Below are positions 10,961 through 26,599 of a DNA stretch of 64,000 nt, piece by piece. The notes below the pieces were generated by a model. That model ran no database searches, was not told the DNA's origin, and worked only from the letters and a program-made list of their open reading frames with translations. A program made the position numbers and the translations under genes. The first letter of the stretch is position 1. Each line of letters starts with the position of its first letter. This DNA comes from a virus (lineage: Duplodnaviria; Caudoviricetes): IMG/VR virus record IMGVR_UViG_3300026442_000101; one strand, given 5' to 3'.

Positions 10961-10989
10961 GGGGAGGGCGACCTCCCCTAAATATGCCG
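10961..10989 (+). terminator. Hairpin followed by TATGCCG
   Basis: GGGGAGG-GCGA-CCTCCCC, then TAAATATGCCG. Confidence 0.6.
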
Positions 10990-22619: not shown

Positions 22620-23240
22620 CTCAAGGATCAGAAAGGCAACTACCCGACAATGGATACCTGGGGAGGAGATGCGCGGCTGCTACGCGCTCCATCGTCGTTA
22701 GGTCGACCAAGACTTTTGTCGCCCTTATCTCCGTTTCAGTGAGGTCAATACCCACCCATCAGATCGCCTATAATAGACGTGCACATCCATTACAAGCATC
22801 TGAAGGCTGCGTACTACGAGCCGCGTTGGTCGGCAGTCCATTTCCGTCTTTTACGATCATCGCTTCAGCCCACTGGACTGCGGGTCGAACCCGGAGCAGC
22901 GGTCCACTAGACCGACGGAGCGTGACGGCGTACCACGATTAACTGCCAAGCGCGAACATCGTGCAACAACTTGAGTACTCCTTGAAGCGTTGGCGTGCTT
23001 AACGAGTCCCCCGTACCCTTCGAAACTCTAATCACCGGCCAGGGGTCAGAGAGTCTCTCATATACTCCAATAGTCCAGGGTGAGGTTATTGGAGATGCCC
23101 TAAGGCATATCAAACACAAGAGTGTTTCACGCCATGTTTAACGTCTTGCGATCATCAGTGATAAGACGATCAGAGGACCAGCTGCCTTAGACAGTCAGGC
23201 GGCCAGCGAGGGAGTCCGGGATGCGCGGCTGGTCCTCTGA
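22620..23240 (-). ncRNA. Putative ~620-nt structured non-coding RNA
   Basis: No credible ORF; many hairpins; 13-bp 5' stem; 12-nt terminal direct repeat; upstream GTATTATAT element; downstream terminator. Confidence 0.6.
23108..23163 (-). ncRNA. Putative type I hammerhead ribozyme
   Basis: UAUCA-CUGAUGA-(23-nt stem/loop II)-GAAA-CAC-UCUU-GUG-UU^UGAUA; all invariant core nucleotides are present, and stems I and III are Watson-Crick. Confidence 0.65.
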
Positions 23241-23263
23241 TATAATACTTTCATGTTTCGTAA

Positions 23264-25383: not shown

Positions 25384-25722
25384 CTAGCCTACATTAGGCA
25401 TGACGATAAGTTTGATGACCTTCAGCTGATCCTGGATGCTCTCCAGTTCGGTAGGCGACAATTTGTCGAGTTCGCCCGTGGTGCTCTGGACAGTCAGCTT
25501 AGCAAGGAAATCTACCTGGACATCGCTCAGCAAACCGCTGCCATTCAGGTTGACGAACAGGCTGATCATCTGAAGATCCACAATGATCGAAGTGACTTTC
25601 ATCTTGGCGAGAGTTCTGTCTTCGCTTTCCTTTGTAGCTTTGATGGACTTGTAGGCTGCGTAACCCAGACCACCAACGATTGCACCCAGAGCAGCGATAC
25701 GGACGATATTACCAAAGTTCAT
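25384..25722 (-). CDS. Membrane-anchored hypothetical protein
   Basis: MNFGNIVRIAALGAIVGGLGYAAYK...; GAGGAGG RBS; N-terminal segment similar to 25069. Confidence 0.6.
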   Translation of the reverse strand: MNFGNIVRIAALGAIVGGLGYAAYKSIKATKESEDRTLAKMKVTSIIVDLQMISLFVNLNGSGLLSDVQVDFLAKLTVQSTTGELDKLSPTELESIQDQLKVIKLIVMPNVG

Positions 25723-25761
25723 TGCGCGACCTCCTCGGTCATTGAGATTGTTCATCGCGAC

Positions 25762-25773
25762 AATGTGTGACTG
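25762..25773 (-). promoter_or_regulatory. Promoter-like motif CAGTCACACATT
   Basis: Motif copy between a terminator and the ATG at 25722. Confidence 0.6.
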
Positions 25774-25834
25774 AAAAATAGTTAAATGCGGCATATACCC
25801 CACCACCGGCGGAGCGACCGGTGGTGGGGATCTA

Positions 25835-26061
25835 TGTTGGTTCACACTTGGGGCTGAGTGGTCACCCCACAGAGTTCGGCTTGTCCTCACGACGCTGAAC
25901 TCTGCAGGCTGTGCACTCTAGGCACTAGCTAGACTCCGACGGACCCGCGACCGTCGTAGCCTAAGGTCGGAGAGGACTCCCGACCACGGTGATCCAACGA
26001 TGGGAGTGTGCACACCGTTGGATTAAACTGAATCCATTCGCCCGAAATAATTCAGTCTAAC
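25835..26061 (-). ncRNA. Putative ~230-nt highly structured RNA
   Basis: Six consecutive hairpins whose G-U pairs work only on the minus strand; GTATTATATG directly 5'; hairpin+TATATGCCG 3' (25789-25829). Confidence 0.65.
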
Positions 26062-26078
26062 ATATAATACATCACATG

Positions 26079-26495
26079 TCACCAGTTGAACATCTTACTC
26101 CTCTCCGATGCATTAGCCTCGACAGTGTATTCGTCGAAAGGCTTGGCATTTGCGTATGCACGTTTAGCTGTAGGGAGGAACCCTGCGGCTTTGTATGCGC
26201 GGATGCTTGAAGCATTCTTCGGTTCGATCCAGGCTCTCATGCGCTTACCTTGACGAAATGCGCGAATGAAGTCTGCTGCCACACCTTTACCCCGATATTC
26301 GGGGAGGATGTAAATAGAGCCTGTCCGCCAGTAGCCGTCCGGCTCTTGGAATGGTACAGAGAATCCCACGACCTTCCCCTCGAAGTACAAGGGTTCGATA
26401 TTTTCCATGTGGTTCTTAAGTGCGGCAGGGCCTAAGAATGGATCCTTCAAGGCTTTGTCCACGAGCGCTTTAAGCTCAGGTGTTATAGTCGCCAT
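26079..26495 (-). CDS. GNAT-family acetyltransferase
   Basis: IYILPEYRGKGVA (motif A) and N..SIRAYKAAGF (motif B). Confidence 0.85.
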   Translation of the reverse strand: MATITPELKALVDKALKDPFLGPAALKNHMENIEPLYFEGKVVGFSVPFQEPDGYWRTGSIYILPEYRGKGVAADFIRAFRQGKRMRAWIEPKNASSIRAYKAAGFLPTAKRAYANAKPFDEYTVEANASERSKMFNW

Positions 26496-26599
26496 GATCC
26501 TACTCTCAATATACTTGACCATACGATAAGTTTTAACGAACACCCCCTATACAAAAAAAGAAAGCACACCAGGGCCTTGCGGCCCTGATGTGTTTAGTC

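Follow-up and report, generated by a model that had tools for sequence, protein, structure and literature searches.

Among the structured RNAs described from phages, the phi29 pRNA (RF00044) is a stand-alone molecule of ~120–174 nt, found in small phi29-like podoviruses, encoded beside the packaging/early region, and built around a three-way junction, whose two complementary and covarying loops make an intermolecular contact. The ROOL and GOLLD RNAs, which are phage-borne as well, measure ~500–800 nt, usually lie near tRNA genes, and combine many covarying helices with kissing loops that were seen by covariation and can bridge chains (PMC12286853). In nucleus-forming jumbo phages of the chimallivirus group, e.g., 201phi2-1 and phiKZ, intergenic and 5' untranslated region (UTR)-derived small RNAs (sRNAs) are known, i.e., units of less than ~250–270 nt with a phage promoter and a phiKZ-type terminator (PMC11512511, PMC10914365). 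Nucleus-forming jumbo phages have been studied intensively, almost only via their proteins, and their non-coding RNAs are barely charted. This study deals with such an RNA, predicted in a 64,000-nt viral sequence (IMG/VR record IMGVR_UViG_3300026442_000101; the whole stretch is hereafter called the window), where a gene-free gap of 356 nt on the minus strand separates the GNAT acetyltransferase stop codon from the start of a gene for a small membrane protein. This gap probably contains an independent gene whose product is a highly structured non-coding RNA of ~265 nt, present in a clade of uncultured soil chimalliviruses.

The minus strand between positions 25790 and 26070 folds at -129.9 kcal/mol (z = -6.95 vs 200 dinucleotide shuffles). 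Together with covariation across relatives, this bears out the proposal of a first-pass annotation, made from the letters of the window, that a hairpin-packed RNA is encoded on this strand. The annotation had made its proposal depend on conservation, and the RNA was found in 10 lineages, on soil metagenome contigs of related jumbo phages; judging from the aligned sequences, the same six-helix fold is kept in all 10 by compensatory changes, in the minus-strand orientation. Alignment A9, with 13 sequences from nine lineages, was fitted to the nested six-helix model, which favours that model; in it, 95.7% of the cells are paired and 54 of the 63 base pairs are changed on both sides. Controls in which the 3' partners were slid reached 33–42% paired cells and 14–22 pairs changed on both sides, and none of 500 shuffles attained the pairing level of the model. 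The model is supported by a wide margin, and plain MAFFT alignments had supplied the first evidence. In the close group, the few differences fall in stems and are compensatory, and the RNA is 92–96% identical vs 68–91% for the flanking coding DNA. The family alignment further contains 100 G.U cells vs 5 A.C cells, so the RNA is read from the minus strand, and the strand argument that the annotation had drawn from G.U pairs holds.

The unit of ~265 nt extends on the minus strand from 26061 to ~25793 and comprises an AT-rich box, a 231-nt body of six helices (P1, P2, P3, P4, P4b, and P5), and a terminator. Its features, from 5' to 3', are:

26061–26069, minus strand: AT-rich TATTATATG box that abuts the first helix and contains TATG, with the G at 26061; box in most lineages, putative promoter
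26022–26061, minus strand: P1 hairpin of 13 bp with a 3-bp apical extension and a family-wide GGGC in its loop; 11/13 pairs changed on both sides in 13 sequences
25994–26021, minus strand: P2 hairpin of 9 bp with loop UGCACACUCC; 99% paired, 9/9 pairs changed on both sides
25986–25993, minus strand: single-stranded joiner between P2 and P3, unpaired in the model
25965–25985, minus strand: P3 hairpin of 6 bp with GUCCUC (25977–25972) in its loop; 100% paired, 5/6 pairs changed on both sides
25930–25963, minus strand: two-part P4 hairpin of 12 bp with a near-invariant CGGGU in its loop; 11/12 pairs changed on both sides
25909–25928, minus strand: short P4b hairpin, CU(A)GUG/CACAG, with a loop ending in GAGUG; 92% paired, middle pair U-A or A-U in five sequences each
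25866–25908, minus strand: long P5 hairpin of 15 bp with GAGGAC (25888–25883) in its apical loop; 99.5% paired, 13/15 pairs changed on both sides
25831–25865, minus strand: 3' tail with the conserved words UGAC, CCCC, and GUGUG(A); conserved in sequence, no proven partner
25789–25829, minus strand: phiKZ-type intrinsic terminator by motif match, a 13-bp G+C-rich hairpin (25829–25798) followed by UAUAUGCCG

All six stems listed in the first-pass annotation can be drawn in the window. Five of them are kept with compensatory changes, namely P1 (11–13 bp), P2 (9–10 bp), GGUCGG/CCGACC, the two-part P4, and GCAGAGUUC/GAACUCUGU, but the sixth, GGGG/CCCC, is not conserved; its G's extend P5 instead, and this extension of the P5 base covaries (CCU/GGG in the window and CCAAA/UUUGG in L009, with U.G, G-C, or A-U at that position). 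The short helix P4b (25928–25909) had been missed. In the P2 loop, the 3' half (CAC-R-CUCC) is conserved in the family. Pairings of the P2 loop with the tail (CACACU x AGUGUG, 78% paired) and of GGGU in the P4 loop with RCCC in the tail (89%) have no covariation beyond conservation. Two other candidates, a closing helix of the P2-P3 joiner with the 3' tail drawn by RNAalifold and a tail pairing GAGUG x CACUC, were rejected; both are lost in L008 and L009.

At the 5' boundary, most of the 10 lineages carry an (A/T)TTATATG-type box immediately before P1 (TAGTATG in the close relatives L003, L005, and L011), and the box is retained in L023 though a different gene lies upstream there. Only two copies of TATTATAT are found in the window, at 26061–26069 and 23239–23247 (minus strand), each at the 5' edge of a non-coding RNA (ncRNA) unit; that a GTATTATAT box is common to ncRNA units is thereby confirmed in the window, and TATTATAT may represent a promoter class reserved for ncRNA genes. 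A second box copy (CCTATTATATGCGTAGCTGACC) occurs in another downstream gene-free gap at L023:5546 and at L025:5157. In phiKZ, TATG with its G as +1 forms the core of the late promoters, which are used by the non-virion RNA polymerase, and TATG alone is not sufficient (PMC4666361). TATG abuts P1 in the window and in most lineages, which supports a start at or beside the G at 26061, where the first-pass annotation had let the RNA begin; because of the insufficiency of TATG alone, that exact base is a putative start.

On the 3' side, a strong hairpin followed by TTATGCYG is found in all lineages. The phiKZ terminator motif ends in YTTATKYYGT (PMC10914365), and a G+C-rich hairpin followed by this ending is present in the window (25829–25789) and in every lineage. 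The motif recurs at least nine times in the window. A G+C-rich hairpin followed by (T)TATGCC(G) stands after many genes (2352, 10983, and 54697 on the plus strand; 63369, 43362, 28256, 25795, 24399, and 22578 on the minus strand), and at 10983 the next ATG follows 10 nt later. The terminator itself contains TATG, and terminator and late-promoter core may overlap. Between the terminator and the next gene, a conserved CAGTCAYACATTGT box (25759–25773 in the window, minus strand) is present in every lineage, though the gene differs; this box probably represents a different class of phage promoter.

The relatives were obtained by I) a metagenome scan with the HD-domain protein of the window, which gave L003 (91% protein identity), and II) searches for which the GNAT protein or the small protein encoded downstream served as query, with subsequent look-ups of the contigs, which gave L005, L007, L011, L008, L009, and L019–L025. 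Every relative contig has a gene-free gap of ~350–395 nt near the GNAT gene. The RNA starts 10–31 nt past the GNAT stop codon in most lineages, with one gene intervening in L023, and in at least six lineages the genes that follow it are unrelated to each other. A covariance model of the close group matches the divergent copies of L008 (126 bits) and L009 (93 bits) over their full length, and rebuilt models gave 100–125 bits for L019–L022 and L024, 92 bits for L023, and 48 bits for L025; over all relatives named here, the scores range from 48 to 291 bits. No conserved open reading frame was found across nine lineages, in which stops occur in essentially all six frames and indels of 1–2 nt occur in loops.

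Searches beyond these contigs gave no further members. A scan of the whole window against Rfam 15 at gathering thresholds yielded 0 matches, the best permissive ones (15–16 bits, E 3.6–5.8) being snoRNA/miRNA noise, and a tRNA/tmRNA scan yielded none. A distant-mode blastn search with the gap as query found no match among 50,697 phage records, and IMG/VR scans with both flanking proteins and with a 30-nt exact word found none either. Structure-aware DNA patterns gave 0, 4, and 3 matches in IMG/VR and GTDB genomes, and all seven were rejected as chance, none being scored by the model. Models R2 and R3, run on the complete records of the cultured jumbo phages Noxifer, DT01, FLC9, and FLC1-1B, detected no copy, which is weak evidence of absence (a first look gave no candidates), and phiKZ and 201phi2-1 were not searched. 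As far as these sequence collections indicate, the RNA family is so far limited to uncultured soil relatives. In Ralstonia phage FLC1-1B, a 348-nt gene-free gap (L027:3486–3834) lies directly after a distant GNAT homologue; the covariance model does not match it, and any RNA there may be unrelated or too diverged to be recognised.

Besides the nested helices, one long-range contact is apparent. When all pairs of unpaired segments were compared in nine lineages, only the P3 loop and the apical loop of P5 were complementary over at least 5 bp in every lineage, with runs of 5–9 bp of varying sequence and a mean longest run of 6.8, vs 2.4–5.7 for the other loop pairs. The contact is 95.2% paired, in columns not fitted to it, with 5/7 pairs changed on both sides, vs 43–64% paired and 1–3 pairs changed on both sides in slid controls. 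The two loops read, P3 loop first:

Window, minus strand: GUCCUC (25977–25972) and GAGGAC (25888–25883)
L008: CGUCCUC and GAGGGCG
L019: CGCUCUC and GAGAGCG
L022: UAUCCUC and GAGGAUA
L023, likewise complementary: UCCUCG and CGGGGA
L025: CCCCG and CGGGG

The covariation supports a long-range helix between the P3 and P5 loops that is kept across the family, and it is the sole tertiary contact with such backing. The first-pass annotation had envisaged a pseudoknotted structural RNA; a conserved RNA of this kind is what the comparison supports, with the pseudoknot made by the P3 and P5 loops and not by the GUGCAC motif that had been put forward.

Covariation alone cannot separate pairing in cis from pairing in trans, and it would fit a helix formed between molecules, giving head-to-tail dimers, rings, or filaments, as well as one formed within a single molecule; precedents for the former are the phi29 pRNA and the nanocages of ROOL and GOLLD. 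For ROOL and GOLLD, covariation had revealed loop contacts that later turned out to bridge chains (PMC12286853). By a rough estimate, inferred and not computed, a coaxial stack of P3, the kissing helix, and P5 would measure ~27 bp or ~75 Å, vs ~50 Å for the bases of P4 and P4b plus two linker nt, so a contact in cis would need a sharp bend. However, bent intramolecular kissing complexes are common, and the 231-nt body is far smaller than ROOL or GOLLD. Such pairing is considered unlikely, though the most serious of the alternatives, and multimerisation of the RNA is accorded a similarly low probability. Slightly lower still is the standing of a wider proposal, in which the P3/P5 helix between copies would yield a self-assembling RNA that forms RNA-only rings or filaments, and which would constitute, with two neighbouring ncRNA genes, a small RNA regulon on the TATTATAT promoter class; one of these two genes shares the TATTATAT box in the window.

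The contact named by the first-pass annotation fares considerably worse. There, the palindromic GUGCAC of the P2 loop would form a pseudoknot with a downstream GAGUGCACA, or would pair with its own copy in another molecule, giving a dimer resembling that of the HIV-1 dimerisation initiation site (DIS). Both words do exist in the window: GAGUGCACA lies at 25918–25910, where it covers the end of the P4b loop and the 3' arm, it is complementary to the P2 loop region as the annotation had stated, and GTGCAC is rare (7 sites in the 64-kb window, 2 of them inside the RNA). The pairing can be drawn in two ways, either as 7 contiguous bp, which uses two P2 stem bases, or as 5 bp (CACUC x GAGUG). GUGCAC in the P2 loop and downstream is, however, confined to the close group of the window and absent from all lineages beyond it, in which the P2 loop reads UUGACACC, AAUAUACG, CUCACACG, and similar, and the downstream word GUGCUC, GUGCUU, GUACAC, or AUGCUC; even in the window, two of its six bases sit in the P2 stem. 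The 7-bp helix, which overlaps and competes with the covarying helices P2 and P4b, is 71% paired (one slid control, 68%). The 5-bp core is 87% paired vs 17–45% when slid, with a single switch from C-G to U-A in L021, but 168 of 500 shuffles equal it and its signal is one of conservation only. Between the P2 loop and the P4b loop, the longest runs stay at background level (mean 3.8, minimum 2), and palindromes of at least 6 nt occur in the P2 loop in two of nine lineages, i.e., they are not enriched relative to other loops or to shuffles. GUGCAC as a kissing or pseudoknot motif is thus improbable.

Hardly better placed, and perhaps marginally less credible, is a role in cis, in which the RNA would either control the next gene, as a riboswitch or attenuating leader, or stabilise the GNAT mRNA as its 3' UTR. 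The short distance from the GNAT stop codon in most lineages and the position of the terminator just before the next gene would agree with it. On the other hand, the downstream gene varies by lineage and has its own conserved promoter-like box, the terminator is of the general-purpose type of the phage, L023 keeps the 5' box with another gene between GNAT and the RNA, and Rfam gave no riboswitch match. Given the 5' box, the terminator, the CAGTCAYACATTGT box, and the differing next gene, a riboswitch or leader is unlikely, and an independent unit is more probable than a GNAT 3' UTR. Hairpins arisen by chance, or an element that acts as DNA (an origin or packaging site), would agree with the plus strand also folding well (z = -5.3), but can practically be dismissed in view of the excess of G.U over A.C cells, the compensatory changes in every helix, and the full-length matches in 10 lineages.

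The preferred reading therefore remains a stand-alone gene for a structured RNA. The RNA polymerase of the phage itself would start at the G of TATG (26061) and stop at the terminator at ~25793. The kissing loop would lock P3 to P5, either inside a single molecule or across copies, and the locked fold would display invariant single-stranded words as a surface, namely GGGC (P1 loop), CUCC (P2 loop), CGGGU (P4 loop), GAGUG (P4b loop), and CCCC (tail). The shape and the exposed loops may constitute the functional surface, a view that fits stems that covary, loops that are invariant, and a single kissing loop acting as a lock. As a guess, the RNA would be a trans-acting structural RNA that binds protein as a scaffold or decoy, possibly a self-assembling one, rather than an antisense regulator or leader.

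Several points weigh against this reading. The promoter class is uncertain: at the 23247 copy of the box, C follows instead of G, the sister ncRNA unit has TATTATATC and not TATG, and in four lineages the model pairs UAU of TATG inside P1. Contigs of 21 listed runs recorded as RNA contain the stretch; in four metatranscriptome runs, the contigs span the whole region at high depth, so that no start, end, strand, or level can be read from them. The linkage to GNAT is partly a search effect, because all lineages were reached via neighbouring proteins (GNAT or the small downstream protein). Lastly, no binding partner or target was identified by any result.

The genes bordering the gap are:

26079–26543, minus strand: GNAT acetyltransferase gene, upstream border
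25384–25722, minus strand: small membrane-protein gene, downstream border

Based on gene content, the window is assigned to an uncultured soil chimallivirus (phiKZ-like, nucleus-forming jumbo phage), because neighbouring genes match jumbo-phage families and many soil metagenome and metatranscriptome runs contain the stretch. The HD-domain protein shares 50% identity with proteins of Pseudomonas phages Noxifer and DT01, and other jumbo-phage matches among the neighbours are a PicA-like phrog_3141 protein and a virion helicase. The GNAT protein is a generic YncA/phosphinothricin-acetyltransferase-like enzyme of the small-molecule type, and no result suggests RNA as its substrate. Just upstream of the GNAT start, contigs of metatranscriptome runs X7 and X12 have an additional A after 26552, which is strain variation or a homopolymer error; two other runs agree with the window. 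In L019–L022 and L024, one or two small opposite-strand genes with matches to Pfam BubE (PF20137) lie beside GNAT, just upstream, and none lies there in the window.

In the window, the RNA is part of a 3.5-kb cluster that also holds the two other ncRNA genes. The covariance model found no second copy of the RNA in the 64 kb, so the two neighbouring units are not regarded as its paralogues. One of the seven GTGCAC sites of the window, at 22779 (AUGUGCACG), falls in the neighbouring large ncRNA (unit 1) and would complement the GUGCACA words of the RNA.

What this study adds is an RNA family absent from Rfam, with a complete covariation-backed secondary structure, a loop-loop contact established by covariation, and defined boundaries (promoter-like and terminator). 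The covariance model and the alignment can be used for mapping the spread of the family in soil metagenomes.

Compared with the described systems, the RNA resembles the phi29 pRNA in being a phage-encoded, stand-alone structured RNA with two complementary covarying loops. It differs in being a 231-nt string of six hairpins from a phiKZ/Noxifer-like jumbo phage, with no match to RF00044, and no link to packaging genes was seen. With the HIV-1 DIS it shares the self-complementary GUGCAC in the P2 loop region of the window, but the palindrome is not kept in the RNA family and lies partly in the P2 stem. The chimallivirus sRNAs of 201phi2-1 and phiKZ (PMC11512511, PMC10914365) are similar in size and in their phiKZ-type terminator, and their phage promoter would have a counterpart in the putative one of the present RNA; the one conserved sRNA among them lies upstream of the tail gene gp182/gp277, whereas the RNA described here follows a GNAT gene. 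ROOL and GOLLD (PMC12286853) are likewise phage-borne, rich in covarying helices, and endowed with kissing loops that were detected through covariation, though the present RNA, with its 231-nt body and no Rfam match, is three times smaller. If its kissing loop does form between molecules, it would represent a small, tractable relative of the RNA-only ROOL/GOLLD assemblies.
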